Of a stretch of DNA of 50,463 nucleotides, positions 128 through 28,822 are shown one piece after another. Source of the DNA: an uncultured Candidatus Peribacteria bacterium (GTDB lineage: Bacteria; Patescibacteriota; Gracilibacteria; UBA1369; JACRIC01); NCBI GenBank assembly GCA_964617145.1, contig CAZTVN010000001.1, positions 1 through 50,463 of the forward strand, written 5' to 3'. How positions within the stretch are numbered: the stretch's first letter is position 1; every line of letters begins with the position of its first letter. The notes beneath the pieces are model-generated. The model worked only from the letters and a program-made list of their open reading frames with translations, was not told the DNA's origin and searched no databases. The position numbers were made by a program, and so were the translations under genes.

Positions 128-880
128 ATGAGTGGAATTTCAGAATTACAAGTACATCTTGAGCCAAAAACCGTCTTTACATTATTTGAAGTCATTCCCA
201 TCACTGATACTATTTTAAATATGTGGCTGGTGATGTTTATTCTCATTAGCCTTACTCTCTTCATAAGATTAAAACTTAAATATCTTCCGTCTGGTTTTCA
301 AAATTTGGTTGAATGGAGTTTAGGCGGTTTGCATGATTTTATGGAAAATATTGGAGGGAAAGAAGCTCAAAAACATTTCGTGCCATTCATTACTTTTTTT
401 TTGGTAATACTTTTTTCCAATTGGCTTGGTTTAAGCTTGGGGTTTATTTCCGAACATCTCAATTTACGCGCTCCAACCAGTGATCTTAACTCAACTGCTG
501 CTCTGGCAATTTCTGCTTTTCTTTATTTTGAGTATCAAGGCGTAAAAGCTCATGGTTTTTTCGCTTATCTTGGCCATTTTATTAATATCAAGGCCGTCTT
601 CAAAAAAGGGCCAATGGGTATTATCGATTTTTTTGTTGGAATCTTACACATTGTTTCGGAGTTGGTTCGTCCTATTGCGCTTTCACTTCGTCTTTTTGGT
701 AATATTTTTGGTGGTGAAATCGTCCTTGCCGTTGCTTTCCTTTTAGTTAAACCACTTATTCCCATCCCTTTTATGATATTGGAATTTGTGGTAGGACTGA
801 TTCAGGCTTTTGTTTTTGCTACACTTTTTCTTACCTTTACATCATTAAATACGGCTCATACCATAGAGCAGGCACATTAA
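128..880 (+). CDS. atpB: F0F1 ATP synthase subunit a
   Basis: 250-aa polytopic ORF with the a-subunit signature ...ALSLRLFGNIFGGE... (conserved Arg). First gene of a canonical atpBEFHAGDC order. Confidence 0.9.
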   Translation: MSGISELQVHLEPKTVFTLFEVIPITDTILNMWLVMFILISLTLFIRLKLKYLPSGFQNLVEWSLGGLHDFMENIGGKEAQKHFVPFITFFLVILFSNWLGLSLGFISEHLNLRAPTSDLNSTAALAISAFLYFEYQGVKAHGFFAYLGHFINIKAVFKKGPMGIIDFFVGILHIVSELVRPIALSLRLFGNIFGGEIVLAVAFLLVKPLIPIPFMILEFVVGLIQAFVFATLFLTFTSLNTAHTIEQAH

Positions 881-905
881 TGTATTATTTTTTAACTTTT
901 TTATC

Positions 906-1121
906 ATGAACACCACCTATGTACTCAACTTATTCCTGCCTCTTGCGATCGCTATTCCTTCTATCGCCATAGGCTGGATAGGTTCTAAGGCTATGGAAGC
1001 TATTAGTCGACAACCTGAAGCAACTTCAAAAATACAGCTTAACATGATTCTCGCGATTGTTTTCGCTGAAGGACTTGGTATTCTAAGCTTTGTTTTATCC
1101 CTCATCATGATTAATAAATAA
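906..1121 (+). CDS. atpE: F0F1 ATP synthase subunit c
   Basis: 71-aa helical-hairpin proteolipid with RQPE loop and carboxylate in ...VFAEGLGIL... There is no Ser/Thr after the Glu, so it looks H+-type. Confidence 0.9.
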   Translation: MNTTYVLNLFLPLAIAIPSIAIGWIGSKAMEAISRQPEATSKIQLNMILAIVFAEGLGILSFVLSLIMINK

Positions 1122-1133
1122 TTTTTTAATCTC

Positions 1134-1715
1134 ATGAATTTTTGGATTAAAACCGCAAAAGCGGAAAATTTGGAAACGATTGCTCTAACTCAAGCTCAAC
1201 CTGAAGCTTCGTCTCGTGCTCAATCTCAAGGCTTGAGCTTAGATCCTTCCATTGTTGCTTTTCAGGCTTTGAATTTTATTGTACTGCTTTTTCTTTTAAA
1301 TAAAATTCTTTACAAACCCCTTTTAAAATTGTTGAAGGATCGTGAAAAAAAAATAAAAGAAGGAGTTGAGAATGCTGAAAAAGCCGATTTTTTATTAAAA
1401 GAATCAAGCGCAACGCGAGAAAATATGCTTAAAGAAGCGCGTATCGAAAGTCAGTCCATGATTGAGACGGCACGTAAAAATGGTGAACAGGTTCGTTTTG
1501 ACCTTCTTTCTAAAGCCCAGGACGAAGTTACTCACTTCATTGCTGCTGGGAAAAATGCTTTGGAAGCAGAAGAAGCGAAGGCATTTGAAGAAGTAAAAGT
1601 TAAAGCGGTAGATTTGATTATCCTTTCAGCGGAAAAATTTTTAAAAGGGAAAATTGATCAGGATAAAGATGCCAAATTGATTAAGGAATATTTAGATATT
1701 TATGCTAAATCATAA
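1134..1715 (+). CDS. atpF: F0F1 ATP synthase subunit b
   Basis: 193 aa with one hydrophobic segment (FQALNFIVLLFLLNKIL) followed by a long charged helix. Positioned between c and delta. Confidence 0.75.
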   Translation: MNFWIKTAKAENLETIALTQAQPEASSRAQSQGLSLDPSIVAFQALNFIVLLFLLNKILYKPLLKLLKDREKKIKEGVENAEKADFLLKESSATRENMLKEARIESQSMIETARKNGEQVRFDLLSKAQDEVTHFIAAGKNALEAEEAKAFEEVKVKAVDLIILSAEKFLKGKIDQDKDAKLIKEYLDIYAKS

Positions 1716-2259
1716 AAAAAAATTGATAATTCCTTTTGCGAAAGCTTTACTTGCTATTTCTCGCAAAAACGAAAATTCAAAAAGAATTTTTGCTGAACTT
1801 GTCAGTCTTAAAGAACTTTTCGCGGAAAAAGATTTTCAGGAAGCGCTTTTGAGATTTTCTCATCTTACTTTAGCCGAAATGCATTTGGTTTTGGAAAAAA
1901 CTTTGGGAAAACATTTTGCTCCGGAAATTTTCAATTTTTTAAGTTTATTGGTAGCTTATGATCTTATCCTACAATTTCCCAAAATCGTCGATGCTTATCA
2001 AAAATTTTATTTTGATTCGGAAAATATTAGTCATTTAAAAATTGTTTCCGCGAGAGTCCTTCCTGAGTCTGAACAGACTAAAATTGCTGATCAATTCAGT
2101 CAAAAAAAATATCATCAATATTATTTTTCTTTTGAAGTAGACCACCATTTAATCGGGGGTATTCAAATGTATGAAAATGATCTCCTCGCAGATTATTCAG
2201 TCAAAAATTATCTTAACCATTTGCGTGTTACATTTTTAAGCTTTTCTTATGAAAATTGA
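1702..2259 (+). CDS. atpH: F0F1 ATP synthase subunit delta (OSCP)
   Basis: 185 aa. Overlaps atpF by 14 nt and atpA by 11 nt. Position and length fit delta; sequence divergent. Confidence 0.7.
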
Positions 2260-3766
2260 TGCTAAACAAATTATCGATCATTTGCAGAAACAATTAGAAA
2301 ATCTTGATTTTAAACCAGAAACCGTTGACACAGGGCGTATTCTTTTGGTCGGTGATGGGGTAGCACTCGTTAATGGACTCAGTAATGTTCAAATGGGTGA
2401 AATGATTGAGTTTCCTGGACCTACTTATGGTATGGCGATTAACCTGGCCCAAGAAAGTGTTGGCTGTATTTTATTTGGTGAGGATAAAAATCTTAAAGAA
2501 GGCGATATTGTCAAAAGTACAGGAAAAATCATGGAAGTTCCCACAGGAGACGAGCTTACTGGTAGAGTGCTTAATGCCCTTGGCCAAGCTATTGATGGTA
2601 AGGGGCCTCTTCATTTTAAAAAACTTCGTCCTATTGAACATAAGGCTGAAGGTGTTATTCATCGTAGACCAGTTTCTGTACCTCTACAAACCGGTATTAA
2701 AGCTATTGATGCCATGATCCCGATTGGTAGAGGCCAAAGAGAACTCATTATCAGTGATCGTCAAATTGGTAAAACAGCTATCGCCATAGATACCATTATC
2801 AATCAGAAAGGCCAGAATGTTCATTGTTTTTATGTTGCTATTGGCCAGAAACAATCAACAGTTGCTAATGTAGTGAGAAAATTGGAAGAAACTGGTGCCA
2901 TGGAATATACAACGGTCATTGTTGCAGGGGCTTCTGATCCAGCTGCTTTGAATTTTATCGCTCCTTACTGCGGTTGCGCTATGGCTGAGGCGGTTATGTA
3001 TGAAGGTAAAGACGCTTTAATTATTTATGATGATCTTTCCAAGCATGCTTGGGCTTACCGTGAAGTTTCTTTGCTTCTCCGTCGTCCCCCCGGTCGCGAA
3101 GCCTATCCTGGGGATATTTTTTATCTTCATTCTCGTTTATTGGAAAGAGCTTCCAGGCTTTCTGACGATATGGGAGGTGGTTCGATCACGGCTTTGCCAA
3201 TTATTGAAACTCAGGCTAATGATATTTCTGCTTATATCCCAACTAATGTCATTTCCATTACTGATGGGCAAATCTTTTTGGAGCCGGAACTTTTCTATGC
3301 CGGTAAACGTCCTGCCATTAATGCCGGTATTTCTGTCTCTCGTGTTGGAGGATCTGCTCAAATTCCAGTAATGAAAAAGGTGGCGGGGAATCTTCGTTTA
3401 AATTTGGCTAAATTTCGCGAATTGGAAGCTTTTGCCCAGGTCGGTTCTGATCTTGATGCTCAAACCAAATCACAACTTGAGCGTGGGCAAAGAGCGGTGG
3501 AAGTATTAAAACAGCCTCAGTACTCACCGCTTCCGGTTGCTAAGCAAATTGCTATTATTTATGCGCTCAATAGTGGGCTACTTGATGATATTGAGATAAA
3601 AGACATTTCATCGTTTGAACAAAAATTTTATCAGTTCCTTGATGATAATTATAAAAATTTACAGGAATCTCTTTCCACAGCTCGTAAATTTACAGAGGAG
3701 TTGGAAATGGAGTTGAAAACGGTTATTGAAAAATTCAAAATAAACTGGAATGTCATCACTTCGTGA
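2249..3766 (+). CDS. atpA: F0F1 ATP synthase subunit alpha
   Basis: 505 aa with alpha-type motifs [16 protein letters not shown] (P-loop region), [27 protein letters not shown] and ITDGQIFLE. Confidence 0.96.
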
Positions 3767-4625
3767 TTTAAAACTCAGAATTCGTTCTATCAAATCCACC
3801 CAAAAAATTACCCGGGCTATGGAGATGATTGCTGCATCTAAAATGAAAAAAGCTCAACAACAGGCTTTAAAAGGTCGTCCTTATCTCAACAAACTTTCAG
3901 AAATGATTGCGGTTCTCATCACTTCCAGTGAGCCAAAGTTGACTCATAAACTTTTAGAAAAAAATAATCACAGCAACAATATTGCCTATATTATTATCAC
4001 GGCTGACCGTGGCCTTTGTGGAGCTTTTAATACTAATATTGCTAAAATCAGTCTTGAAAATTTTTCCGTTCGTCAGGATAAAGGACGAAAAATTGTAGCA
4101 GTAGGTAGAAAAATTCGCCAAACCATGCAGAGACTTGGCCAAAGCATTGTTGCTGATTTTGAACAAATGGCCAATGCTCCTGAATTTTTAGACACTCTTG
4201 GTATTGCCAGAATCGTTTTAGATGAATATTTGGCAGGTTCTGTTGATGAAGCATATTTAATTTATAATCATTTTTATTCAACGATTAATCAAAAGCCAGT
4301 TGTCCAGAAATTGTTACCGATTGAACCTGAAACTATTTTTATTGCTGAATCGTCTGCCAATGAAGCGTCAGGTAAAATTGATTATATTTTTGAAGGAGAA
4401 AAAAATATTCTTTTAGACGAACTTTTGCATAGATTGGTCAACATTAAAGTTTATCAGGCGGTGATGGAATCAGCAGCCTCTGAACATTCTGCGCGCATGA
4501 TTTCTATGCATCAGGCTTCTGATAACGCTAAAGAGATTGTTTTGAATTTGACTTTGGAGTACAACAAGACCCGTCAGTCTAAAATTACGACTCAAATTTT
4601 GGAAATTATTGGCGCCGTACAGTAG
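3750..4625 (+). CDS. atpG: F0F1 ATP synthase subunit gamma
   Basis: 291 aa. N-terminus [33 protein letters not shown] and C-terminus ...[16 protein letters not shown] are typical of gamma. Confidence 0.92.
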
Positions 4626-4637
4626 AAAGGCCTTTAG

Positions 4638-6065
<1,428 letters not shown>

Positions 6066-6098
6066 ATGTAATAGTTCATTTCGTTACAGTTCATACTC

Positions 6099-6509
6099 AT
6101 GTTCGACTTAAATATCATTACGGTAGAAAAAAATATTTTTACTGGTAGGGTTTCCTCCGTTATTGTCCCAACAGTAACCGGTGAAATCGGTATCTTGACC
6201 GACCATCATCCTTTAATCGCGAAATTGGATATTGGTGCTATTAAAATAATTTTAGAAGATAATTCTGAACGAACGATTTTTATGGCTGGAGGGTTTTTAG
6301 AAGTGCATAAAAATAAAGTTGCAATACTGGCAGATTTGGCAGAGAATCTTGAAAACATTGCTTTGGAAGAAGCCAGTGCCGCCCGTAAAAAGGCTGAAAC
6401 AATGGTGACTGAAGCAAAAGATGCGGTAACAGCTGAGAAACTTAAAGAGGAACTGCGCATTGTAATGATGAGAGAAAAGCTCGCCCAAATGTCTAAATAT
6501 AAAAAATAG
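6099..6509 (+). CDS. atpC: F0F1 ATP synthase subunit epsilon
   Basis: 136 aa. Beta-sandwich-like N-terminus (..GEIGILTDHHPLIAKL..) plus C-terminal helical hairpin. Last gene of the operon. Confidence 0.85.
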   Translation: MFDLNIITVEKNIFTGRVSSVIVPTVTGEIGILTDHHPLIAKLDIGAIKIILEDNSERTIFMAGGFLEVHKNKVAILADLAENLENIALEEASAARKKAETMVTEAKDAVTAEKLKEELRIVMMREKLAQMSKYKK

Positions 6510-9153: not shown

Positions 9154-10085
9154 ATTTTTTTGTTTCAATCTATCAATTCATACTTATCTTGCTTATCGCC
9201 CCATTTGCGGCAGGAATAGTTAAGTTTTTTAAGGCTAGACTTCAGGGAAGAAAAGGAGCTTCTCCCATTTTGCCATATTTCACGATATTGACCTTGATGA
9301 AAAAGCAAATGGTCATTTCTAAAAGTACTTCATGGGTTTTCCGGCTGGCTCCATTTGTTGTTTTGGGTACTTCATTATTTATGGTTTTAATATTGCCGCT
9401 GGTTTCTATAGATCGATATTTATCGGCATATAGCAATTTTGTTATTATCGCTGGAATACTCATGCTTGGAACCATCTTTTTAATTTTCGGAGGACTTGAA
9501 TCGGCTTCAGCGTTTGGTGGCATGGGCTCAAGTCGTGAAATGACTATTGCTTCTTTAGTTGAGCCAACTATGATCTTGATTTTTGGTGCACTGGCTTTAA
9601 ATAGTGGTAGTTCAGAAATTAGCAGGATGGTCTCAGACCTTAATATAACGACGCAACCTTTTATCATACCGAGTCTGTTGGCGCTGGTTCTCCTGGCGCT
9701 CGCGGAAAATGCTCGTTATCCTGTCGATAATCCTGCTACACATCTGGAGTTAACCATGGTACACGAAGCAATGATCCTTGAATATTCTGGTCCTTTTTTG
9801 GCTTTGATAGAATATGCTTCGTTTCTTAAACTTACCCTGTTTTCTGTTTTGTTGATGAACTTGATTTATCCGATTGGTTTATTGGAAAGCTCTTCAGATC
9901 TTTTGTCTTATCTTTTGTCTCCTTTATTTCTTATCGCCAAAGTTATTGTCATGATGTTTTTGCTCGCTTTTTTAGAAAGTTCTATCGTGAAAATGCGTTT
10001 TTATAGAGTGCATGAGTTTTTGGCTGTTGCATTTTTTTTAAGCCTCGGTGGTATTTTTTTGACACTTGTTAATACGATTTTATGA
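9150..10085 (+). CDS. HycD/HyfC-like (NuoH family) membrane subunit
   Basis: 311 aa. The N-terminus ..APFAAGIVKFFKARLQGRKGASPILPYFTILTLMKKQ...WVFRLAPFVV parallels the HycD/NuoH N-terminal pattern. Confidence 0.82.
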   Translation: MNFFVSIYQFILILLIAPFAAGIVKFFKARLQGRKGASPILPYFTILTLMKKQMVISKSTSWVFRLAPFVVLGTSLFMVLILPLVSIDRYLSAYSNFVIIAGILMLGTIFLIFGGLESASAFGGMGSSREMTIASLVEPTMILIFGALALNSGSSEISRMVSDLNITTQPFIIPSLLALVLLALAENARYPVDNPATHLELTMVHEAMILEYSGPFLALIEYASFLKLTLFSVLLMNLIYPIGLLESSSDLLSYLLSPLFLIAKVIVMMFLLAFLESSIVKMRFYRVHEFLAVAFFLSLGGIFLTLVNTIL

Positions 10086-10753
10086 TCTCCATTCACGTCA
10101 TAATAGATTTTTTTGCAGGGGGATTGCTTCTGACTACATTCCTTATGATGGGGAAAATACGCCTCATACCGATGTTAAGATACTTTGCAGTCAGTTCCTT
10201 TTTTTTGGCAGGCCTTGGGGCAAGCATGTCTCTTTTGAAAGAAGAAAAAGATTTTTTTATAGCTCCTTTGGCAACCATTTTGTTTAAGGTAGTATTTATA
10301 CCATTGATTATCAATTTTACTGCCAAAAAACTACCTTCTTCCAATCAACTCAAAATGTATTTTAGGCCTGCAACAACTTCTTTTATGTTTTTATTTGTGT
10401 TGATTTTAAGTGGAATAATTGTTAGGAATTTTCCGGTCACTTTTGATGGTACTTTCGATAATCCTTTTTTCTTCAAGAGTTTATTGTTTATTTCAATCAG
10501 CCTGATCCTTTCAGGGATTTTATTGACTGTAATCAGAAAAGATTTGTTTTCACAGGTTTTGGGTTTGCTTACCATGGAAAATGGAATTGCTGCCTTTGGT
10601 CTCGTTACACTTGATGGTATCCCTATTTTTTTAGAAATGGGAATTTCTTTTGTAATTATTATAAGTACGGTAATTTTAGCGGTTTTGATTGATAGAGTTC
10701 ATGAAGTTTATACGATTGGCGACACTGAAAATTTAAAAGAATTAATTGATTAA
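10082..10753 (+). CDS. HyfE-like small membrane subunit (NuoK-related)
   Basis: 223-aa polytopic protein. C-terminal ..LGLLTMENGIAAFGL...EMGISFVIIISTVILAVLI.. resembles E. coli HyfE (..CLMENGSHLVL..). Confidence 0.75.
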   Translation: MISIHVIIDFFAGGLLLTTFLMMGKIRLIPMLRYFAVSSFFLAGLGASMSLLKEEKDFFIAPLATILFKVVFIPLIINFTAKKLPSSNQLKMYFRPATTSFMFLFVLILSGIIVRNFPVTFDGTFDNPFFFKSLLFISISLILSGILLTVIRKDLFSQVLGLLTMENGIAAFGLVTLDGIPIFLEMGISFVIIISTVILAVLIDRVHEVYTIGDTENLKELID

Positions 10754-10762
10754 CTTATTATA

Positions 10763-12256
10763 ATGGCGATTGTAATTTTTATTTTTTTCCCGGTAACCGC
10801 GCTCCTGCCTCTTTTTTTTAAACAGGTTAAGCAGGTACGTCTGATGGCTCTTGTCATGGGTATAGTCAGTTCGTTGATAACCTTTTTGTTCCTGATAAAA
10901 CCGCTATTCTCCAAGCAGGCTTTCATCCTTGGAAATGTACTCCGGATAGATCGCTTTTCGGCTTTTATGGGAATTTTGATCATTTTGCTTTATTTTTTCA
11001 CGGTTATCGTCAGTCATAGATATATTAAAGAAGAAAATCATGAAAAAATTCTCGATTTAAAACAAATCAGATTGTATTTTTTATTATTGCCTATTTTTGC
11101 TCTCGCGATGCTCACCGTGGTGATGGTTGATAATTTAGGTTTGCTCTGGTTGGCTTTGGAAATAACAACTTTAGCCACCACTCCTTTAGTAGCTCTTTAT
11201 AGAAAAGATGGCTCACTCGAGGCAGCATGGAAATATATTATTCTTTGTTCTTTGGGAATAAGCTTGGGTTTATTAGCTGTTTTATTTATCAGTTACGCTG
11301 GTATCAATAGCAATTTAAGTCCTTTTGATTCATTTTCTTTGAGAATGCTTACGATGAACGCTTTAAAGATGCCGCCAGCTATTATGCAATGGGCTTTTCT
11401 CTTTGCTTTTATTGGTCTTGGCACCAAAATTGGATTTTTTCCTATGCACACATGGCTTCCTGATGCTCATGGACGCACTCCGTCTCCCATTTCGGCTATG
11501 CTTTCTGGAATACTGCTCAATGTAGCTTTTTATTCTTTAATGAGAATCAAATTTATTACTGACATAGCGCTTCGTTCATCAGAGTGGACTAATAATCTCT
11601 TTTTGGCATTTGGTGTTATTTCTCTCGTAGCAAGTGCTTTTTTTCTCTATATTCAACATAATTATAAAAGAATGTTGGCCTATTCCAGCATGGAGCATAT
11701 GGGGATATTGGCAATAGCCGTGGGACTCGGACCACTTGGAATGGTTCCTGCATTGATGCATATGTTTGCCCATACATTGTCCAAATCATTACTTTTTTTT
11801 GGTTCAGGTGAAATCTTATTAGCCACTAAAACGGCTAAAATTCATAATGTAAAAAATTTGATTCATACTATTCCTGTTACCGGCACTCTTTTTATTTTGG
11901 GTATGTTTTCTCTTCTTGCTGTTCCACCTTTTGCTGCTTTTTCTAGTGAAATATTGATACTTGCTGCAATAGTTAACAAGGGGCATCTGGTTATTTTCTT
12001 TTTGATGTTATTGGCTCTGGCGCTTGTTTGTGTAAGTTTGTTTAGACATACTTTTAGGATGTTTTGTCTTCATCAAACTGATGATAATCATCAAGGGGAT
12101 GATTACCAAATTGAAAAAAAATTTACTGAAAAATTTAATTTGACCCATCTTGTCATGGTTGTAGAAATTGTGCTTTTGGCTATTTCTGGAATTTTCATGT
12201 TAACCCCAGAAGGTTTTAACTTTTTTTCAGGCATTGCTCAATCAATATTTTTATAA
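10763..12256 (+). CDS. HyfF/HyfD-like (NuoM/N family) antiporter-like membrane subunit
   Basis: 497-aa polytopic protein with ..GLGTKIGFFPMHTWLPDAHGRTPSPISAMLSGILLNVAFY.. and ..RMLAYSSMEHMG.. motifs. Confidence 0.85.
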   Translation: MAIVIFIFFPVTALLPLFFKQVKQVRLMALVMGIVSSLITFLFLIKPLFSKQAFILGNVLRIDRFSAFMGILIILLYFFTVIVSHRYIKEENHEKILDLKQIRLYFLLLPIFALAMLTVVMVDNLGLLWLALEITTLATTPLVALYRKDGSLEAAWKYIILCSLGISLGLLAVLFISYAGINSNLSPFDSFSLRMLTMNALKMPPAIMQWAFLFAFIGLGTKIGFFPMHTWLPDAHGRTPSPISAMLSGILLNVAFYSLMRIKFITDIALRSSEWTNNLFLAFGVISLVASAFFLYIQHNYKRMLAYSSMEHMGILAIAVGLGPLGMVPALMHMFAHTLSKSLLFFGSGEILLATKTAKIHNVKNLIHTIPVTGTLFILGMFSLLAVPPFAAFSSEILILAAIVNKGHLVIFFLMLLALALVCVSLFRHTFRMFCLHQTDDNHQGDDYQIEKKFTEKFNLTHLVMVVEIVLLAISGIFMLTPEGFNFFSGIAQSIFL

Positions 12257-12258
12257 TT

Positions 12259-13830
12259 ATGGAAACTAAAAGTCATCTCAGTATTGACGGTGTGTTTCAA
12301 GAACAGATGAGTCATAATCAAAAGAATTTGCGAATTTTTAAGACAGATTCTGAAAATTTTACCAGAGTTGTAGCTTCTCTCGTTTCTCAGAATTATCGAC
12401 TGGCTTGGTTGTTTGGGACCGATGATAGAGCAGAACATAAGACTTTTGGAGTCCATGCCGTACTCGCCATGGGAGGTAAAAATGAATGGTTGCAGATCTC
12501 AGCCGCTCTTTCCGAAGCAAATCCAGAGTATCCTGCGTTGACGAAAACTATTATGGCAGCTATTTGGTATGAAAAATACCTTATGGATATGTTTGGAATA
12601 GTGGCTAAAGGTCACCCTGATCCACGTCGTTTGGTTCATCATGAGAATGTTCCGCGTGACATTCATCCTTTAAGAAAAGATTTTGAATGGAATACTGTTA
12701 TGGAAAAAGATGATGTTCCTTATCCGATGCTCCATGTCGGAGGCAATGGTATTTATGAGATTCCAGTTGGGCCCATTCATGCCGGAATTATTGAGCCGGG
12801 ACATTTTCGTTTTAATGTTGCGGGCGAAAGGATTGTTAATCTTGAAGGTAAATTGTTTTTTACCCATAAGGGTGTGGAGAAATTATTGGAAGGGAAATCT
12901 GTTTTTGCCGCATTGCCCTATGTCGAGAGAATTTCTGATGATTCTGCGGCTTCACATGTTTTGACTTTTGTACAGACTTTGGAATTGATCGCGGGTGTAC
13001 ATATTTCAGAAAGGGCTAGTCTTTTAAGGACATTGATTGCTGAACTAGAGAGATTAACCATGCACATTCATGATATTTCAAATATTGCCGGAATGGGAAC
13101 AGGCTATACTATTATGGCTGCCCATGGCTTTCGGATCAAAGAAAATTTGGTAAGACTTTCTGAAAAAATTTTTGGAAATCGTTTTTGGAGAGGGTTTATT
13201 ATTCCAGGAGGAGTGGTTCGTGATTTGTCTGAAGCCGAGCTCGATTTGATCTCTCAAACAGTTCAGGAGATTATGGCTGACATGCATGGGCTACTTAATA
13301 TTGGTCTTAAATCAGACGGTCTTTTGGAAAGAATGATAACTGCCGGTGTTCTTACTTTGGATGCAGCCAAAGCTTATGGTGCTGTTGGAATTGCCGTTCG
13401 CGCCATTGATCAAAAAATGGACACCAGGATAGATCATCCTTATGTTTCTTATGATAGATTGAAATTTCAGGTAGTGACCAAAACAGGTGGTGATGTTTTT
13501 GCCAGATTTATGGTTCGCGTCGGTGAATTGGATGTTTCTTCTCAAATGATCGAAGAACTTTGCACATTGCTTCGTACTGTGAAGGGCGAAACGAAGGTTG
13601 TTTTGGTTTTGCATTCAGGAGAAGCTTTGTCGGCGGTGGAGGGTTTTCGAGGTGAAATCCTTCACTTTGTACGCCTCAATGATAAAGGATTCATTGAACG
13701 CATGGCAGTTCGCGATCCATCATTTTGTAACTGGCCACTCTTTGGAGAAATTGGACCAGGCAATATCGTGCCAGATTTTCCACTCTGTAATAAATCGCTC
13801 AATTTAAGTTATTCAGGGAATGACTTATGA
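12259..13830 (+). CDS. HycE/HyfG-like large subunit (NuoC-NuoD fusion) lacking the [NiFe] cysteines
   Basis: 523 aa. NuoC-like N-terminus (..YEKYLMDMFGIVAKGHPDPRRL..) then GPIHAGIIEPGHFRF. The L1 motif reads ERISDDSAASH where group-4 hydrogenases have ER-x-CG-x-C-xxx-H. The C-terminus reads SLNLSYSGNDL where they have S-x-DPC-x-SC-x-DR. Confidence 0.85.
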   Translation: METKSHLSIDGVFQEQMSHNQKNLRIFKTDSENFTRVVASLVSQNYRLAWLFGTDDRAEHKTFGVHAVLAMGGKNEWLQISAALSEANPEYPALTKTIMAAIWYEKYLMDMFGIVAKGHPDPRRLVHHENVPRDIHPLRKDFEWNTVMEKDDVPYPMLHVGGNGIYEIPVGPIHAGIIEPGHFRFNVAGERIVNLEGKLFFTHKGVEKLLEGKSVFAALPYVERISDDSAASHVLTFVQTLELIAGVHISERASLLRTLIAELERLTMHIHDISNIAGMGTGYTIMAAHGFRIKENLVRLSEKIFGNRFWRGFIIPGGVVRDLSEAELDLISQTVQEIMADMHGLLNIGLKSDGLLERMITAGVLTLDAAKAYGAVGIAVRAIDQKMDTRIDHPYVSYDRLKFQVVTKTGGDVFARFMVRVGELDVSSQMIEELCTLLRTVKGETKVVLVLHSGEALSAVEGFRGEILHFVRLNDKGFIERMAVRDPSFCNWPLFGEIGPGNIVPDFPLCNKSLNLSYSGNDL

Positions 13831-15994: not shown

Positions 15995-17077
15995 TTAGAT
16001 GATTTCTACAAATTTATCGAAAATAAAGTTTGTATCTATGGGGCCAGGCGTTGATTCGGGATGAAATTGAACTGCCATGAAAGGCAGGGAAGCGTGTTTA
16101 ATTCCTTCTACTGTCTGATCATTGGCGTTTTCAAACCATACTTTCCAATCTTTTAGCAGTGTTTTTTTATCGATCGCAAAGCCGTGATTTTGTGAGGTTA
16201 TATAGCAACGACCAGTTTCAAGATCGGTTACTGGTTGATTTTGTGAACGATGGCCGTATTTGAGTTTATAGGTTTTTGCGCCTGAGGCTATGCCTAAAAC
16301 TTGAGCGCCAAGACAAATCCCGAGGGTTGGAATTTTATGCTCCATTGATTTTTTTACGAGTGCATGTGTTTCCTTGATAACACATGGATCTCCCGGGCCG
16401 TTCGTAATGAATACCGCATCGAACTTGAGTTTGTTTTTGAAAAAGTCGTAATTCCAAGGAACTCGATGTACGGTAATGTTTCTTTTTAGAAAATTTCTTA
16501 GAATATTGTTTTTCATTCCACAATCGATGATAATGATGGATTTTTGACCTCTTTTATAGGTGATTGGTTTTTTAATACTTACTTTGGATACGATGTTTTC
16601 TTTATTAGGATCATAAAAGTTGATGGTTACCGGATCGATATTTTCTGGAATAATTTTCCCAAGCATAGTTCCTTTTTCTCGCAGTTTTTGAGTTAAGGCG
16701 CGGGTATCGATTCCTGTGATTGCTGGAATATTGTTTTCTTTCAGCCAGTCGTTGAGACTTTTTTTTGCATACCAATGGCTATAATTTCCCGAATATTCCG
16801 AAACAATTAATCCTTTTATTTGTATTTTTTCACTTTCAAAATTTTTGTTAATTTTGTCTTTTTCATGCGTATTTTCAGGAACCCCATAATTACCAATGAG
16901 CGGATAAGTGAGGACAAGAATTTGTCCAAAATATGAGGAATCTGTTAAGGTTTCAGGATAGCCTACCATCCCTGTATTAAAGACTACTTCTCCACTTTCA
17001 GGAATTTTGGCCCCAAATGAAATTCCTTCAAAGATGGATCCGTCTTCCAGAATGAGTTTTGCTTGTTTTTTATCCAT
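15995..17077 (-). CDS. carA: carbamoyl-phosphate synthase small (glutaminase) subunit
   Basis: 360 aa. N-terminal CPSase-small domain (..VFNTGMVGYPETLTDSSYFGQILV..) and class-I amidotransferase triad context (LGICLGAQVL, VQFHPES). Confidence 0.93.
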   Translation of the reverse strand: MDKKQAKLILEDGSIFEGISFGAKIPESGEVVFNTGMVGYPETLTDSSYFGQILVLTYPLIGNYGVPENTHEKDKINKNFESEKIQIKGLIVSEYSGNYSHWYAKKSLNDWLKENNIPAITGIDTRALTQKLREKGTMLGKIIPENIDPVTINFYDPNKENIVSKVSIKKPITYKRGQKSIIIIDCGMKNNILRNFLKRNITVHRVPWNYDFFKNKLKFDAVFITNGPGDPCVIKETHALVKKSMEHKIPTLGICLGAQVLGIASGAKTYKLKYGHRSQNQPVTDLETGRCYITSQNHGFAIDKKTLLKDWKVWFENANDQTVEGIKHASLPFMAVQFHPESTPGPIDTNFIFDKFVEII

Positions 17078-17180
17078 AATAACGAATGATGTTCTTTATA
17101 ATTTTTCCGTCCTTATTATAGAGGATAATTTATCCTTTTCCATACGTGCTTTCCTTTCTCCTACAATGAATGATGATTTT

Positions 17181-17189
17181 TGATATAAT
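17181..17189 (+). promoter_or_regulatory. candidate extended -10 promoter for the TerC/DUF475 gene
   Basis: TGATATAAT (TG-n-TATAAT) 31 nt upstream of the ATG at 17220. The -35 region is poor (CTACAA). Confidence 0.4.
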
Positions 17190-17219
17190 CATTTTGGCAT
17201 ATCCGCAAATTTTTATTTT

Positions 17220-18143: not shown

Positions 18144-18185
18144 AAAATAAATAAAAACCTTCTAAACTACATTAAACGGCTGATA

Positions 18186-19124
18186 TTGAATACATTTATG
18201 GAGTATACTAACGCCAATATTCTTTCCTCAAAGCAGTTTGATTCAAGGAGTCTCGAACAGCTTTTTAAAGTTGCCAAAGAGTTAGAGCCTATTGCTCAAA
18301 AGAAACTTCCTTCTGATCTCCTTCGAGGGAAGGTTCTTGCTAGTGTTTTTCTTGAACCTTCAACTCGTACTCGTTTTTCGTTTGAAACGGCTATGAATCG
18401 TCTCGGAGGGCGTGTCGTAACCATAGCCGATCTTCATCAATCTTCTTTAACCAAAGGGGAAACGCTTCAAGACATGGCTCATACTATTTCTTTTTTTAGC
18501 GATGTTACTGTTATGAGGCATCCACAGGCTTTCTCTGTTTCTGTTTTTTCTGAAGGTTCTTTAGTTCCTGTCATTAACGCAGGAGATGGTTCAAATGAGC
18601 ATCCTACTCAAGCTATTGCGGATATTTATACGCTTCATAAAGAGAAGGGTTCTATTGATGGGTTGACGATTGCTTTTCTTGGAGATTTGAAATATTCGAG
18701 GGTGGTTCATTCTCTTTCGAGTCTTCTTTGCCATTTTAGTGTGAAATTTATTTTTGTTTCACCTCAGGCACTTCGTATGCCTGAAAGTGAACGACAGTTT
18801 CTTCATGAAAAAGGTGTTTATTTTGAGGAGACGGAAAATTTAGAGGATGCTATTAAAAAATCTGAGGCTATTTATGTCACACGTATTCAGCGTGAACGTT
18901 TTGAAAATCAAGATGAATATGAAAGACTTTATGGCGTTTATATTATTAGTAAATCTTTGATTGAACGTTGTAACAGTGATGTTCTTATCATGTCTCCTCT
19001 TCCTCGATGTGGCGAAATTACTCAAGATACGGATCAACTTGATGGCGCTTGTTATTTTCGGCAGGTTTCCAATGGTGTTTCTGTACGAATGGCGCTTTTA
19101 AGTTTGGTTTTGGGAAAGATTTAA
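18186..19124 (+). CDS. pyrB: aspartate carbamoyltransferase catalytic subunit
   Basis: 312 aa with EPSTRTRFSFE, HPTQAIAD and SPLPR motifs. The track start is TTG 18186; the in-frame ATG at 18198 is an alternative start. Confidence 0.93.
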   Translation: MNTFMEYTNANILSSKQFDSRSLEQLFKVAKELEPIAQKKLPSDLLRGKVLASVFLEPSTRTRFSFETAMNRLGGRVVTIADLHQSSLTKGETLQDMAHTISFFSDVTVMRHPQAFSVSVFSEGSLVPVINAGDGSNEHPTQAIADIYTLHKEKGSIDGLTIAFLGDLKYSRVVHSLSSLLCHFSVKFIFVSPQALRMPESERQFLHEKGVYFEETENLEDAIKKSEAIYVTRIQRERFENQDEYERLYGVYIISKSLIERCNSDVLIMSPLPRCGEITQDTDQLDGACYFRQVSNGVSVRMALLSLVLGKI

Positions 19125-19163: not shown

Positions 19164-20492
19164 ATGTTTGATACCGTTATAAAGAATGCTCGAATTGTTT
19201 CTCATGAACCAGGTATTCGACAGGGTGATATTGTTATAAGTGGTGGAAAAATTGTTGATATTATTGATGCTTTTGATGGCGAAGCTTCTTTTATTTATGA
19301 TGTTTCAGGAAAATATGTGCTGCCTGGGATCATTGATGCTCATGTTCATTTTCGTGATCCGGGTTTGACGAAGAAAGAAGATTTTGTGAGTGGGTCTCGC
19401 GCTGCTGTGAGTGGCGGCATTACGACGGTTTTTGATATGCCTAATACCGATCCTCCAAATGTGAGCTTATCTGCTCTTATTGATAAGCGTCGGCGTATTT
19501 TGGGTCGCAGTTTTTGTCATTATGGATTTTATTTTGGCGCTACGGCTCATAATCTTCATGATCTTGAGAAGGTGAGCAATGTCGCTGGGATTAAATATTA
19601 CATTTCTCATTCGACTGGAGGACTTGGTGTTCCTGACATGAGCGTTTTGGAGCGTATTTTTGAGCATACGAATAAGCTTGTTGCGGTTCATGCTGAAGAT
19701 GAATCGATTATTCAGAGAAATTTTCAATTGTATGAGGATGAAGTTATTGGGATAGGGGATCATGGCAAAATTCGAAGCCGAGAAGCTGCGTATGAGGCTA
19801 CTTTGCAAGCTCTTACTTTAGCTCAAAAATATAAGCATCGACTGCATGTATGTCATGTGACGACTCAGGATGAAGTTGATCTTATTTTAAGATATCGTTC
19901 TCAAGGTGTTTTGGTTACTTTTGAGATTACCCCTCATCATCTTTTTTTGACTGAAGAAGAAGGGGAAAAACAGGGATTTTTTGTTAAAGTTAATCCTCCT
20001 CTTCGAACGCATAAAGATACTGTTTCGCTTTGGAAGGCGCTTGAAAGCGGTGATCTTGACATGATTGCTACGGATCATGCGCCTCATTTAAAGTCTGAAA
20101 AACATGCTGCGTATAAAGATGCTCCTTCTGGCGTACCTGGAGTTGAAACGATGCTTCCTCTTTTACTTCATGCTATGAATAAGCGTCGATCTTTTGCTTT
20201 ACATGATATTGTGAGGCTTATGTCGTATAATCCTGCTCGGATTTTTGGACTTCATTCCAAAGGAGCTGTGATTGTTGGATATGATGCGGATTTGGTCGTT
20301 TGCGATCTTGAACTTGAACGAGTTGTTGAGAATGAGTCATTGTATACTAAGTGTGGATGGTCTCCGTTTCATGGTTGGAAGCTTCGTGGTTGGCCAGTTA
20401 TGACTTTTGTTAGCGGGATGCCTGTGTATCGCGATGGTAAAGTCGATGAAAATTTTCGATGCGGGAAAGAGGTTGAATTTCATGCATCTTAA
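19164..20492 (+). CDS. pyrC: dihydroorotase
   Basis: 442 aa with amidohydrolase metal motifs IDAHVHFRDPG and ATDHAPH. Located between pyrB and pyrD. Confidence 0.92.
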   Translation: MFDTVIKNARIVSHEPGIRQGDIVISGGKIVDIIDAFDGEASFIYDVSGKYVLPGIIDAHVHFRDPGLTKKEDFVSGSRAAVSGGITTVFDMPNTDPPNVSLSALIDKRRRILGRSFCHYGFYFGATAHNLHDLEKVSNVAGIKYYISHSTGGLGVPDMSVLERIFEHTNKLVAVHAEDESIIQRNFQLYEDEVIGIGDHGKIRSREAAYEATLQALTLAQKYKHRLHVCHVTTQDEVDLILRYRSQGVLVTFEITPHHLFLTEEEGEKQGFFVKVNPPLRTHKDTVSLWKALESGDLDMIATDHAPHLKSEKHAAYKDAPSGVPGVETMLPLLLHAMNKRRSFALHDIVRLMSYNPARIFGLHSKGAVIVGYDADLVVCDLELERVVENESLYTKCGWSPFHGWKLRGWPVMTFVSGMPVYRDGKVDENFRCGKEVEFHAS

Positions 20493-20552: not shown

Positions 20553-21485
20553 ATGGATACTTCAGTCGATTTTTGTGGCGTAAAGTTTCCAAATCCTACG
20601 GTTTTAGCTTCTGGTATTTTGGGCGTGACTGGGGCGAGTTTGCTTCGGGTAGTGAAAAATGGTGCTGGCGGGATTACCACTAAATCTGTTTGGTATAAGG
20701 CTCATAAAGGCCATCCGAATCCTGTGATTATTGCGAATGAGCATTTTATGCTCAATGCCGTTGGCCTTCCTGATGCAGGAATTGAAAAAGCCCGTGAAGA
20801 GATTCCTAAAGTTTTAGAAAAGTCTTCTGTACCTGTTATTGTGAATATTGTTGAGCGAAGTTTTGAAGATTTTGAACGTGTTGCGGAGCAGGTGGCTGAA
20901 ATGAAACCGTCTCTTATTGAGGTTAATATTTCTTGTCCTAATGTTGATAATGAGTTTGGGAAGCCTTTTTCCTGTTCAACGAAGGATGCCCATGAGCTGA
21001 CACGAAGGGTGAAAAAAAGAGTTGGCAAGATTCCTATTATTTTGAAACTTACTCCAAATGTGACTTCTATCTCTGAAATAGCTAAAGCTGTTGAATCTGC
21101 TGGAGCTGATGCGATTTGTGCTATTAATACGATGCCAGGTTTTATGTACGATATTGATATGAGGGCGCCGGTTTTGCATAACGGATTTAGTGGTATTTCC
21201 GGGCCTGCGATAAAGCCGCTTTCTGTTCGATGTGTGTATGAAATTGCTCGAAGCGTGAAGATCCCCATTATTGGGACTGGTGGTATTTTGACTGGACGTG
21301 ATGCTCTTGAAATGATGATGGTTGGTGCGACGCTTGTTGGAGTGGGAACAGGAGTACATTATCGTGGTATAAGTGTGTTCAAGAAAATTGTTCAAGAAAT
21401 GAGTGAGTGGTGTGAGAAAAATAAGGTGAAACGATTTCAAAATTTAATAGGTGTGGCGCATGAAAAGTCTTTTCGTCTTAAATAA
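20553..21485 (+). CDS. pyrD: dihydroorotate dehydrogenase, class 1B catalytic subunit
   Basis: 310 aa. TIM-barrel DHOD motifs (..EVNISCPNV.. with active-site Cys, ..IIGTGGI..). Followed by pyrK. Confidence 0.92.
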   Translation: MDTSVDFCGVKFPNPTVLASGILGVTGASLLRVVKNGAGGITTKSVWYKAHKGHPNPVIIANEHFMLNAVGLPDAGIEKAREEIPKVLEKSSVPVIVNIVERSFEDFERVAEQVAEMKPSLIEVNISCPNVDNEFGKPFSCSTKDAHELTRRVKKRVGKIPIILKLTPNVTSISEIAKAVESAGADAICAINTMPGFMYDIDMRAPVLHNGFSGISGPAIKPLSVRCVYEIARSVKIPIIGTGGILTGRDALEMMMVGATLVGVGTGVHYRGISVFKKIVQEMSEWCEKNKVKRFQNLIGVAHEKSFRLK

Positions 21486-21515: not shown

Positions 21516-22361
21516 ATGTCCGATCAAATCCCTCAAACATTTACGATTAAAAAAATTATTCAAGAGAATGCTGCGGTCAAAACTTACATCTTTGATCGAT
21601 CTGTTTGCGGGAAACCCGGACAGTTTGTGAATGTTTGGATTCCTCGGATGGACGAGAAGCCTATGAGTATTGCTTATGATGATTCCAAATCTCTTTCTCT
21701 TACTATTTGTGAGGTTGGTTCGTTTTCTCGTGCTATAGCTTCGAAAAAGGTTGGTGATAAGCTTGGTATACGTGGTCCTTATGGAAAACCTTTTCATTGG
21801 CAAAAAAAACAACATCTTATTATGGTAGCAGGTGGTTATGGTGCGGCGCCTTTGTTTTTTGCATCGAAAATGGCCATTCAAGATGGCTGTACAATAGATT
21901 TTATTCTTGGAGCTCGGACGAAAAATCATCTTCTTTATCTTAAAAGATTAGGGCTTGTCAAAGGGCTAAAACTGCATATTTCAACGGACGATGGAAGTTG
22001 TGGGCATAAAGGATATAATATCGATATTTTAACGAAAATTTTAGGTGAAACCCGAATGAAAACGTTGCAATTACCCGGTGCTCATTTTTTGAAGAAAAAA
22101 GCTGACTGGGTTTTTACTTGCGGTCCGGAAATGATGATGAAGCGAGTCTCTGATATTTGTTTTGAGAAAAATATTAAAGCTCAGGTGAGCGTCGAACGTT
22201 ACATGAAGTGCGGTTTTGGTATTTGTGGGCAGTGTTGCGTTGATGAATCAGGAATGCCTGTGTGTATTGAAGGTCCTGTTATGGATAATGATACAGCCCG
22301 AATGATCGAAGAATTTGGGAAATATCATCGCGACAGTGAGGGGAGGAAGGTTTATTTTTAG
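21516..22361 (+). CDS. pyrK: dihydroorotate dehydrogenase electron-transfer subunit
   Basis: 281 aa. FAD/NAD-binding fold (..IMVAGGYGAAPL..) and C-terminal 2Fe-2S motif CGFGICGQCCV...PVCIEGP. Confidence 0.9.
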   Translation: MSDQIPQTFTIKKIIQENAAVKTYIFDRSVCGKPGQFVNVWIPRMDEKPMSIAYDDSKSLSLTICEVGSFSRAIASKKVGDKLGIRGPYGKPFHWQKKQHLIMVAGGYGAAPLFFASKMAIQDGCTIDFILGARTKNHLLYLKRLGLVKGLKLHISTDDGSCGHKGYNIDILTKILGETRMKTLQLPGAHFLKKKADWVFTCGPEMMMKRVSDICFEKNIKAQVSVERYMKCGFGICGQCCVDESGMPVCIEGPVMDNDTARMIEEFGKYHRDSEGRKVYF

Positions 22362-27038: not shown

Positions 27039-27710
27039 ATGGAGCAGTATAAGCAAGAATTTGTGAAGTTTTTGGTTGAAACACAGGCTTTACAATTTGG
27101 TGAATTCACCTTGAAAAGTGGTCGAAAAGCTCCTTATTTTTTTAATATTGGCAGTTTTTGTCAAGGATCGGCCATTTCTAAGCTTTCATCTTATTATGCA
27201 GAGGCTTTTCTTCAAAGCGGATTTTCGGCTGATGTGATCTTTGGGCCTGCTTATAAGGGCATTCCTCTTGCTGTTTCTCTTTCTATTACACTTTTTCGAG
27301 ATTTTCAAAAAAATGTTTCTTATGCTTTTAATCGTAAAGAAGCGAAAACTTATGGACAGAAAGATACGATTGTAGGCGCTTCTTTTTCTGATAAGACTCG
27401 CGTAGTTCTTGTTGATGATGTTGTTACCGCTGGAACCGCGATTCGAGAATCTTTAGAGATACTTAAAAATAATGGTAATCCCCAGATTTCTGGCATTCTT
27501 ATTGCTTTGGACCGTATGGAAAAGAATAATGATGGGGAAAATGCGCTTCTTTCGCTTTCTCAAGATTTTCATATTTCCATACACGCCATTATTACTTTAG
27601 ATGAGGTGATTGAATATTTATACGGAAGATCATTTGATGGCCATACCTATATTGACGATGAACGTATGGAAGTTATCCAAAATTACAGGGCTTTATATGG
27701 TATTTCCTAA
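27039..27710 (+). CDS. pyrE: orotate phosphoribosyltransferase
   Basis: 223 aa with ..FGEFTLKSGRKAPYFFN.. and PRPP-binding loop VVLVDDVVTAGTAIRES. Confidence 0.93.
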   Translation: MEQYKQEFVKFLVETQALQFGEFTLKSGRKAPYFFNIGSFCQGSAISKLSSYYAEAFLQSGFSADVIFGPAYKGIPLAVSLSITLFRDFQKNVSYAFNRKEAKTYGQKDTIVGASFSDKTRVVLVDDVVTAGTAIRESLEILKNNGNPQISGILIALDRMEKNNDGENALLSLSQDFHISIHAIITLDEVIEYLYGRSFDGHTYIDDERMEVIQNYRALYGIS

Positions 27711-27714: not shown

Positions 27715-27873
27715 ATACTGTAAAACATGATTATTACTACAATTGACAAAATTTGGCTACGAATAACTCATCGCTCGTCGTCGTATCTTGTATCTGATAC
27801 ATGTTTTTCTCGCGAGTTCGTTGTTCTCGCTCAAATTTTGTCAATTTCGATACGCAATCATGTTTTGCAGTAT
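27715..27873 (+). promoter_or_regulatory. long imperfect stem-loop (candidate cis-regulatory leader) upstream of pyrF
   Basis: Helices 27715-27732/27856-27873 (18 bp, one U-G), 27741-27756/27831-27846 (15 bp + G-U), 27761-27767/27820-27826, 27773-27778/27812-27817, and apical 27783-27787/27796-27800. The G-U pairs work only in the plus-sense RNA. Confidence 0.45.
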
Positions 27874-27886
27874 GTCACTAATCTTT

Positions 27887-28822
27887 ATGCAACATTTCGC
27901 TGATCGTCTTATTCAACAGATAAAAAGTAAAAAAAGTTCTGTATGCGTTGGACTTGATCCTCGTTTAAGTCACATTCCAAAATTTATACAAGAATCGGCT
28001 TTGGCCTGTCACAAAGATCCTTTTAAGGCTGCTTCAAAGGCTCTGGTTGATTTTAATAAAGGTATTATTGATGCTGTTTATGATCTTGTGCCTGTTGTGA
28101 AACTCCAAATAGCGTTTTATGAAATTTTTGGGCCTCATGGGATGGAGGCTTTTCTTCAAACGATTGCTTATGCAAAGGAAAAAGGACTCATTGTTATAGC
28201 TGACGCCAAACGTTCTGATATTGATTCGACTGCCAAGGCTTATGCTCAGGCTTTTTTGGGAGAGTTTGAGGTTTTTGGCGAAAAACTTAAGATGTATGAT
28301 GTTGATGCCATGACTGTGAATCCTTATCTTGGTTATGACAGCATAAAACCTTTTATTGAAGTTTGTAAATGTTACGGGAAAGGTATTTTTGTTTTGGTGA
28401 AAACCTCGAATTTTTCTTCTGCTGATATTCAAGATCTTTACAATCAAACTGGACAAACAAATTATGAAATTGTTGCTCGTTTACTTGAAAGTTGGGGAGC
28501 TGATGAGATTGGAGAGTGCGGTTATAGTTGCGTTGGAGCGGTTGTTGGTGCAACTTTTCCAAAAGATGCGCTTCGGCTTCGTTCTATTATGCCAAATACT
28601 ATTTTTCTTGTTCCCGGGTATGGGGCTCAGGGAGCGACGGTACAAGATGTAAAAGTTTGTTTTCATGAAGATGGTCTTGGAGCTATTGTGAACTCTTCGC
28701 GTAACATTATTTTTGCTTATCAAGATTCTTCTCGTTTTTCAGAAAAAGACTATGCTTTAGCTTCGAGGCAGGCTGTTATTGAGATGAATTCGTTTTTTAG
28801 AGGTTCAACATTTCGTTCGTAA
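27887..28822 (+). CDS. pyrF: orotidine-5'-phosphate decarboxylase (long, type-2 form)
   Basis: The family-typical N-terminus begins at MQHFADRLIQQIKSKKSSVCVGLDPR (ATG 27887). It also has ..VIADAKRSDI.. and ..LVPGYGAQG.. The track start TTG 27788 adds 33 hydrophobic residues encoded inside the hairpin. In-frame ATGs at 27860 and 27872 are alternatives. Confidence 0.88.
   Translation: MQHFADRLIQQIKSKKSSVCVGLDPRLSHIPKFIQESALACHKDPFKAASKALVDFNKGIIDAVYDLVPVVKLQIAFYEIFGPHGMEAFLQTIAYAKEKGLIVIADAKRSDIDSTAKAYAQAFLGEFEVFGEKLKMYDVDAMTVNPYLGYDSIKPFIEVCKCYGKGIFVLVKTSNFSSADIQDLYNQTGQTNYEIVARLLESWGADEIGECGYSCVGAVVGATFPKDALRLRSIMPNTIFLVPGYGAQGATVQDVKVCFHEDGLGAIVNSSRNIIFAYQDSSRFSEKDYALASRQAVIEMNSFFRGSTFRS

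Follow-up and report, generated by a model that had tools for sequence, protein, structure and literature searches.

The 50,463-nucleotide stretch of DNA analysed here (contig CAZTVN010000001.1 of assembly GCA_964617145.1, positions 1 to 50,463; hereafter the window) comes from an uncultured Candidatus Peribacteria bacterium, and six tightly packed or overlapping genes at 6593-13830 encode a membrane complex related to group 4 hydrogenases and complex I. The last of the six specifies the large subunit, which is very probably an intact protein under purifying selection that cannot hold a [NiFe] centre and that belongs to an Ehr-type complex, close to hydrogenase 4 and group 4f, in a clade carried by bacteria of the Candidate Phyla Radiation (CPR). 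Ehr complexes are relatives of group 4 hydrogenases without the Ni/Fe ligands (PMC6349859, PMC10284858, PMC4378227, bioRxiv 10.1101/765248). The small subunit keeps one of the four cysteines that hold a [4Fe-4S] cluster in related enzymes, the membrane subunits by alignment keep every canonical charged ion-translocation residue that we examined, and a complete F1Fo ATP synthase operon lies directly upstream. The best explanation of the whole, to which we give a probability of about 0.5, is an Ehr-type, cofactor-free complex of the CPR that acts as an ion translocator. The case bears on two questions: the role of Ehr complexes, and the energisation of membranes in CPR bacteria without respiratory chains.

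Loss of the metal ligands

The large subunit joins an N-terminal Complex1_30kDa (NuoC) domain to a C-terminal Complex1_49kDa (NuoD or hydrogenase large subunit) domain, according to Pfam, and its top match among PDB sequences is E. coli HycE (7z0s_E, E = 1e-65 with HMMER). Both in the HMMER alignment to HycE and in a MAFFT alignment to HycE, HyfG and NuoCD (the reference hyf, hyc and nuo proteins being those of E. coli MG1655), ERISDDSAASH pairs with DRVCGICGFAH and NLSYSGNDL with DPCYSCTDR, and the four [NiFe] cysteine columns are occupied by S226, S229, S517 and G520. An earlier note on this DNA, made from the sequence alone, had claimed exactly this replacement of all four ligands by S, S, S and G, and the two alignments bear it out. 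Its reading of two TCT serine codons at 12934 (S226) and 12943 (S229) also agrees with our check of the codons, which places E223 (GAG) at 12925 and H233 at 12955-12957; of the RxCGxCxxxH motif, R224 and H233 are kept around the two lost cysteines. At the other end, S517 (AGT at 13807) and G520 (GGG at 13816) take the place of both cysteines of DPCxxCxx[H/R]; the last codon, that of L523, is 13825-13827, and the stop follows at 13828-13830. The note had named these two residues correctly, but its coordinates, 13795-13827, take in no more than the final 11 residues (SLNLSYSGNDL); its quotation of 20 residues spans 13768-13827.

The C-terminal motif sits in a near-invariant tail, PDFPLCNKSLNLSYSGxDL. 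The cysteine in this tail, C510, was considered as a cryptic ligand, a possibility that the note had raised in the form of a shifted motif. No alignment to HycE, HyfG or NuoCD brings a cysteine onto a ligand position, and C510 is not a hidden ligand because its column is variable, with Ile in many relatives, including the Cys-containing hydrogenases of the sister clade (PLINKS). The note had further pointed to the absence of a C-terminal extension. The absence is real; as a sign of ligand loss it is uninformative, since Cys-containing sister hydrogenases (Brocadia, L025; Sporomusa, L064) also end at CxxCxD[LR]. The GPIHAGIIEPGHFRF loop, described there as an intact fold signature, is indeed intact in the MAFFT alignment, and it is common to true hydrogenases.

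An AlphaFold 2 (AF2) model of the large subunit alone has a predicted template modelling (TM) score of 0.84, and its best structural match in the PDB is again HycE (7z0s_E, TM score 0.83), followed by E. coli NuoCD (0.79-0.80). The per-residue confidence (pLDDT) falls below 50 at residues 155-201 (12721-12861) and 498-523 (13750-13827), and the model, which confirms the fold, is therefore uninformative on the old active site. These low-confidence segments are the most conserved ones, the GPIHAGIIEPGHFRF loop and the PDFPLCNKSLNLSYSGNDL tail; they probably need contact with the NuoB- and NuoH-like partners in order to fold.

The small subunit was aligned to MbhJ and HycG, then to HycG, HyfI and NuoB of E. 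coli, and the codons were checked. At the positions of the [4Fe-4S] ligands C48, C51, C115 and C145 of HycG it carries C82, E85, G149 and N179, so that one cysteine of the proximal cluster is kept out of four. Most CPR relatives have T, E, G and D at these positions and a second CPR-rich group has T or D, C, D and D, whereas Nitrospira-type Ehr and the Cys-containing hydrogenases of the family have four cysteines. In the 50-kb window we found no homologue of the ferredoxin-type subunits HyfA, HyfH, HycF and NuoI, nor of Hyp or HycI proteins, and no CxxCxxCxxxC motif in any frame; tblastn of the window with E. coli NuoA, NuoI, NuoJ and NuoK gave nothing significant, and no open reading frame (ORF) of the cluster corresponds to NuoE, NuoF or NuoG, which were not among the tblastn queries. 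Judged by its residues, the six-subunit complex keeps no binding site for the usual redox cofactors of the family. Since the small-subunit ligands are lost and a ferredoxin subunit is missing, no conventional electron path would be left in the CPR clade.

The small subunit of the window also has an N-terminal extension (6593-6800), about 70 residues long and with many charged residues, which most orthologues (177-183 amino acids, aa) do not have. Uhrbacteria relatives instead have a separate gene of 211 aa without Pfam match, which follows atpC and precedes the gene of the small subunit (L004, 3650-4285; L091, 3660-4295).

Conservation and phylogenetic position

The 120 best matches to the large subunit in a collection of 5.8 billion proteins share 56-72% identity with it and come mostly from Patescibacteria/CPR (Uhrbacteria, Moranbacteria, Peregrinibacteria). 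Ligand 1 is Ser in all 120; ligand 2 is M, A, S or T, and Cys in one; ligands 3 and 4 are Ser and Gly in all 119 that reach the C-terminus. Such uniform substitution far exceeds chance and is not decay, and the note's view of a conserved protein that would bind no NiFe centre, rather than a pseudogene, holds on this ground as well as on that of low non-synonymous divergence (dN) with saturated synonymous divergence (dS). An identical protein was found on three assemblies. A scan of one genome per GTDB species gave 591 loci with relatives, of which the best 80 were fetched. Ten of these 80 encode true hydrogenases (ERICGxC ... ELCY[SA]CxD[LR]), and all others are Cys-less, with Ser at ligand 1 and Ser and Gly at ligands 3 and 4.

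In the comparison with a Peregrinibacteria bin (L009), the nearest relative that is not identical, dN is 0.20-0.30 for the five shared genes and synonymous sites are saturated. In that with an Uhrbacteria locus (L004), dN of the small subunit equals that of the ATP synthase beta subunit (0.25 each), and dN of the large subunit (0.40) is lower than that of epsilon (0.62). Because identity to the closest non-identical relatives is only about 72%, dS is saturated (undefined by the Nei-Gojobori method, NG86), and the case for purifying selection is made by dN and an upper-bound argument instead of a dN/dS figure. Selection of this kind, which the note expected, is also apparent in 69 columns that are at least 97% conserved across Ehr and sister hydrogenases, among them E179, H182, R184 and the PDFPL.NKS tail. 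Only four columns part the two groups with at least 90% consistency: 226 (C to S), 486 (S to D), 517 (C to S) and 520 (C to G).

Phylogenetic placement, a check that the note had proposed, was made with a neighbour-joining tree of 84 sequences (BLOSUM62 distances, NuoCD as root), which has moderate support, being without bootstrap and without Mbx or Ech references. HycE and HyfG split off first, then the Cys-containing group; the Cys-less proteins form a single clade, with HycE/HyfG and NuoCD outside it, sister to the Cys-containing hydrogenases of the same family and beside group 4f-type hydrogenases. Within this clade the forms without cluster ligands and with the gene order small-hyfB-C-E-F-large (type A) group together. 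Type A is found in CPR, Bdellovibrionales, Thermoleophilia and a few others, and the order hyfB-C-E-F-large-small (type B) in Nitrospira (including the cultured N. moscoviensis), Firmicutes, Brocadia and Methanosarcinales. In this tree the sequences from CPR are divided between two groups, mixed with sequences of Acidobacteriota (L010), Bdellovibrionales, Thermoleophilia, Firestonebacteria and Fibrobacteria; the window protein is in CPR group 1.

The acidobacterial locus (L010, 4167-11419 of the 5.35-Mb contig CAWEZL010000001.1) is a cluster of CPR group-1 type, 58% identical, with the small subunit first, T, E, G and D at the Fe-S positions and no ATP synthase nearby; a lateral transfer between CPR and non-CPR bacteria is probable. 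In some non-CPR genomes, two hyf- or Ehr-type clusters stand in tandem within 20 kb (L040, L059 and L074, from Fibrobacteria, Nitrospirota and Methanomassiliicoccus).

Membrane arm and neighbouring ATP synthase

All six reading frames are intact, and all NuoD, NuoB and hydrogenase scores of the cluster in NCBIfam are below the curated cut-offs. The HyfB-like subunit has E144, K225, K354 and E409, the pattern of E. coli HyfB, which recurs in 46 of 46 family members. E133, K222, N253 and E396 of the HyfF-like subunit align with E144, K234, K265 and E407 of NuoM and equal the E, K, N, E of E. coli HyfF; among the 46 members, the Glu of transmembrane helix 5 and the Lys of helix 7 are invariant, helix 8 has mostly Asn, and helix 12 has Glu or Lys. 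The acidic residues of a loop conserved in HycD and NuoH are retained in the alignment of the HyfC-like subunit. The list of canonical residues follows established work on complex I, and their presence at those positions of the E. coli sequences was verified. Orthologues of the HyfE-like subunit match Oxidored_q2 (NuoK) weakly. One CPR locus (L090, 6898-8496) encodes the HyfC-like (NuoH) and HyfE-like (weak NuoK match) subunits as a fused protein of 532 aa, which supports the two as direct neighbours in the complex.

The gap between atpC and the small-subunit gene measures 83 bp and contains no terminator-like site in a promoter and terminator scan, whose counts were at or below the shuffled expectation; an Rfam scan of the window gave no matches. 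The cluster and the F1Fo ATP synthase are probably co-transcribed. We scored the flanks of the loci (about 4.3 kb upstream, up to 10 kb downstream) for ATP synthase genes, and found them at 12 of 23 named CPR loci, at one of six loci assigned to 'bacterium' only and at none of 52 non-CPR loci. The link is present on all three further long CPR contigs that we looked up, for a total of 15 of 26 CPR loci, and an Uhrbacteria contig also shows it. By our own estimate, chance co-location in these flanks amounts to about 2% for a genome of about 1 Mb.

The layouts differ. The cluster lies directly downstream of atpC in the window and at L004, L007, L011, L041, L090 and L091, and downstream of or convergent to atp genes at L012, L021 and L089. 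At L062 (4431-11566, contig CAYHUB010000003.1) it stands whole inside the atp operon, atpA-atpG-[cluster]-atpD-atpC, and in a Daviesbacteria locus (L032, 3103-20660) between atpD and atpC on the opposite strand. This variety across two subclades argues for selection on proximity, despite the relatedness of the loci. In the literature that we searched we found neither an Ehr-ATP synthase link nor the small-subunit-first gene order.

A Na+-type ATP synthase was considered and rejected. At the positions of the Na+-binding motif the c subunit has I and E-G-L; Na+-binding c-rings carry Q and E-S-T there (the Ilyobacter c-ring motif). The ATPase of the window is therefore probably proton-coupled.

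How the complex may work

With a confidence slightly short of even, we propose that the complex is redox-inactive and works with the ATP synthase as a secondary, Mrp-like translocator of cations or protons. No redox chemistry would be left to it, and the peripheral arm would be retained as a structural cap or gate. The ATPase of a fermentative cell that has no respiratory chain would hydrolyse ATP and so build a proton gradient, which the Ehr module could convert or regulate, for example for Na+ extrusion or pH homeostasis; the reverse direction, in which an ion gradient is supplied to the synthase, may also operate. The further step, that this derivative of complex I and hydrogenases, devoid of NiFe, Fe-S and quinone sites, is both a genetic and a functional accessory of F1Fo in CPR bacteria, is tentative and rather doubtful as a complete statement. 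Such an accessory would be a converter or regulator of the gradient, possibly a physical partner of F1Fo, and the membrane energetics of these ultra-small cells, which do not respire, would then start from ATP hydrolysis.

Several points weigh against the proposed translocator. The function of Ehr complexes is given as unknown in the literature (PMC6349859, PMC10284858, PMC4378227, bioRxiv 10.1101/765248). The link to the ATP synthase is not universal in the clade, since about half of the CPR loci have no ATP synthase gene in flanks of 4-10 kb and non-CPR loci never do, and the counts are not independent events because the loci are phylogenetically related. The ion specificity of the ATPase is judged by a sequence motif. 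C82 of the small subunit has C151 nearby, and a non-canonical metal site is conceivable. Lastly, a peripheral arm that is free of cofactors and yet extremely conserved, including the tail PDFPLCNKSLNLSYSG of the old active site and, on the proton path, E179 and H182, is hard to explain by antiport alone, and the arm may still do chemistry or sensing.

Three other explanations are considered. That last objection leads to one of them, a non-redox chemistry or sensing in which the remodelled pockets (S226, D228, D486, S517, E179 and H182, plus the carboxylates found in place of the cluster ligands) would bind a cation or substrate, and the membrane arm would power a non-redox reaction or be gated by it, by analogy with vectorial CO2 hydration (CupA/NDH-1, DAB complexes) or with a cytoplasmic pH or ion sensor. 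New conserved carboxylates, D228 and D486, stand exactly where the cysteines were lost, Glu and Asp replace Fe-S ligands, and the conservation of the peripheral arm equals that of ATP synthase beta; the DAB2 study reportedly provides a precedent for an antiporter-like module coupled to non-redox chemistry. However, we identified no recognisable catalytic motif such as Zn ligands, ligand position 2 varies (M/A/S/T), and the idea is drawn purely from conservation, in segments for which AF2 confidence is low. It is the main rival, but we consider it unlikely. The general hypothesis in the literature is a redox-driven pump, in which electrons from a soluble partner pass through the peripheral arm and drive ion translocation, as with the FDH-Ehr (FDH, formate dehydrogenase) proposed in Margulisbacteria. 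In its favour are the four cluster cysteines of Nitrospira-type small subunits and the strong conservation around the former active site. Against it, the small subunits of the CPR clade have none or one of the four ligands, the cluster encodes no ferredoxin-type subunit and the window no 4Fe-4S motif, the large subunit is without the His and Tyr of the quinone site, we see no path for electrons, and none of the genes conserved next to the cluster at the inspected loci encodes an oxidoreductase. The loss of the small-subunit cluster and of the ferredoxin subunit, together with the conserved ion-translocation apparatus, argues against an 'unknown redox partner' for the CPR clade, and we regard a redox-driven pump as distinctly improbable there.

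Lost cofactor ligands and NCBIfam matches that all stay below the curated family cut-offs could also mark the remains of a decaying hydrogenase operon or a piece of ordinary complex I. Decay is refuted by the conservation data: six intact frames, an identical protein on three assemblies, low dN with saturated dS, conserved functional residues in the membrane subunits, and the same ligand substitutions fixed across hundreds of genomes of many phyla. Against a fragment of complex I stand the gene order, which is hyf-like instead of nuo-like, and the absence of NuoA, NuoE, NuoF, NuoG, NuoI and NuoJ. Taken together, this pair of readings is hardly credible, and the Mrp-like translocator is the one that we retain.

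If it is confirmed, the complex would show that, in nature, a machine of complex I type can return to ion transport that is independent of redox reactions. Should it also be an accessory of F1Fo, it would be the first member of the complex I family with a peripheral arm working without redox chemistry, and the first Ehr complex with a concrete functional context. A context of this kind is testable, given that the cluster repeatedly lies within or next to the ATP synthase operon, and does so specifically in CPR. Three features look new: the small subunit has lost its [4Fe-4S] ligands, a ferredoxin subunit is absent, and the cluster is linked to the ATP synthase at the level of the operon. We found no mention of [4Fe-4S] loss in CPR Ehr in a literature search that did not cover Marreiros et al. 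2013 (BBA), and claim no priority for it, since this founding Ehr paper may already describe cluster-less small subunits.

Other genes of the window

The coordinates of the cluster, of the ATP synthase operon and of a set of pyrimidine genes are given in Table 1. The latter is a nearly complete gene set for de novo pyrimidine synthesis (15995-22361 and 27039-28822), which is unusual for CPR. A P-type (E1-E2) cation-transporting ATPase of 943 aa (29853-32687, minus strand) adds a further ATP-driven ion pump to the F1Fo of the same 50 kb and bears on the ion-gradient handling of the cell. Two adjacent ORFs of 470 and 106 aa without Pfam match lie at 25066-26779 (minus strand).

Table 1. Coordinates in the window of the Ehr-type cluster, its former ligand motifs, the ATP synthase operon and the pyrimidine genes
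Feature	Position	Strand	Basis
Small subunit, EhrS / HyfI / NuoB-like, 200 aa	6593..7195	+	Pfam Oxidored_q6; alignments with MbhJ, HycG, HyfI, NuoB
HyfB / NuoL-like antiporter-type membrane subunit, 653 aa	7192..9153	+	NCBIfam 'hydrogenase 4 subunit B', 1.8e-140, below curated cut-off
HyfC / HycD / NuoH-like membrane subunit, 311 aa	9150..10085	+	Pfam NADHdh; alignment with HycD, HyfC, NuoH
HyfE-like small membrane subunit, 223 aa	10082..10753	+	NCBIfam 'hydrogenase 4 membrane subunit', 5.5e-17, below cut-off
HyfF / NuoM/N-like antiporter-type membrane subunit, 497 aa	10763..12256	+	E. coli HyfF residue pattern
Large subunit, EhrL / HyfG-like, fused NuoC and NuoD domains, 523 aa	12259..13830	+	Pfam, HycE match, reference alignment, AF2
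N-terminal former ligand motif E-R-I-S-D-D-S-A-A-S-H (RxCGxCxxxH)	12925..12957	+	Alignments, codons
C-terminal former ligand motif N-L-S-Y-S-G-N-D-L (DPCxxCxDR)	13801..13827	+	Alignments, codons
Complete F1Fo ATP synthase operon, directly upstream of the small-subunit gene	128..6509	+	ORFs, Pfam labels
atp gene, subunit a	128..880	+	ORFs
atp gene, subunit c	906..1121	+	ORFs
atp gene, subunit b	1134..1715	+	ORFs
atp gene, subunit delta	1702..2259	+	ORFs
atp gene, subunit alpha	2249..3766	+	ORFs
atp gene, subunit gamma	3750..4625	+	ORFs
atp gene, subunit beta	4662..6065	+	ORFs
atp gene, subunit epsilon	6099..6509	+	ORFs
carA-like	15995..17077	-	
pyrB	18186..19124		
pyrC	19164..20492		
pyrD	20553..21485		
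pyrK-like Fe-S subunit	21516..22361		
pyrE	27039..27710		
pyrF	27788..28822		

Relation to described complexes

A Cys-less large subunit is an already published trait of Ehr, including that of the CPR, and by itself no discovery. According to Jaffe et al. 2020 (PMC7304191), CPR Ehr form a subclade of their own without the cysteines and "likely cannot interact with H2"; the paper is silent on ATP synthase, antiporters and the Ehr small subunit. The large subunit of the window complex is a group 4 hydrogenase homologue without the Ni/Fe-binding cysteines and, as in published Ehr, is encoded together with NuoB-, NuoH- and NuoL/M/N-like subunits, without a NuoEFG module; published Ehr are inferred to be unreactive towards H2. 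Ehr of the Nitrospira type (such as that of N. moscoviensis, L052) differ from it in that they keep the cluster cysteines and end in the order large-small.

Among hydrogenases, E. coli hydrogenase 4 (HyfBCEFGI) and the group 4f-like enzymes match the window complex in subunit types and in the canonical residues of the HyfB-, HyfC- and HyfF-like subunits, and the sister hydrogenases (relatives from Brocadia, Sporomusa and Thermincola) share the PDFPL[IC]NKS tail and the GPIHAGIIEPGHFRF loop. The closest fold is that of HycE, but the window complex has neither the [NiFe] cysteines nor a proximal cluster; HyfA, HyfD, HyfH, HyfJ and HyfR are absent, and there are no maturation genes nearby. NuoCD/NuoB of complex I and the MBS and Mbx complexes belong to the same fold family, and MBS and Mbx have also lost NiFe binding. 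Complex I and MBS, however, keep the [4Fe-4S] cluster of the small subunit and a NuoI-like ferredoxin subunit, which the window complex does not. The note had left room for an ordinary NuoD, and we also reject NuoD/NuoB of complex I: in the E. coli NuoCD columns of the quinone-site His and Tyr the window protein has I178 and D227, its partner is without the N2-type cysteine ligands, and it is encoded in a six-gene operon of its own with hyf-like order.

With the Mrp Na+/H+ antiporters the window complex shares antiporter subunits of NuoL/M/N type, the absence of redox cofactors, and the Glu of transmembrane helix 5, Lys of helix 7 and Lys or Glu of helix 12 typical of MrpA and MrpD (E144, K225 and E409 in the HyfB-like subunit; E133, K222 and E396 in the HyfF-like one). 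Unlike Mrp, it has a NuoH-like subunit and a NuoB/NuoCD peripheral arm, and no equivalents of MrpB, MrpE, MrpF or MrpG were identified in the cluster by Pfam and NCBIfam scans, so that the MrpA-G composition is not reproduced. Because of these additional subunits and missing equivalents, Mrp would be the best functional analogy for the window complex, not the family to which it belongs.

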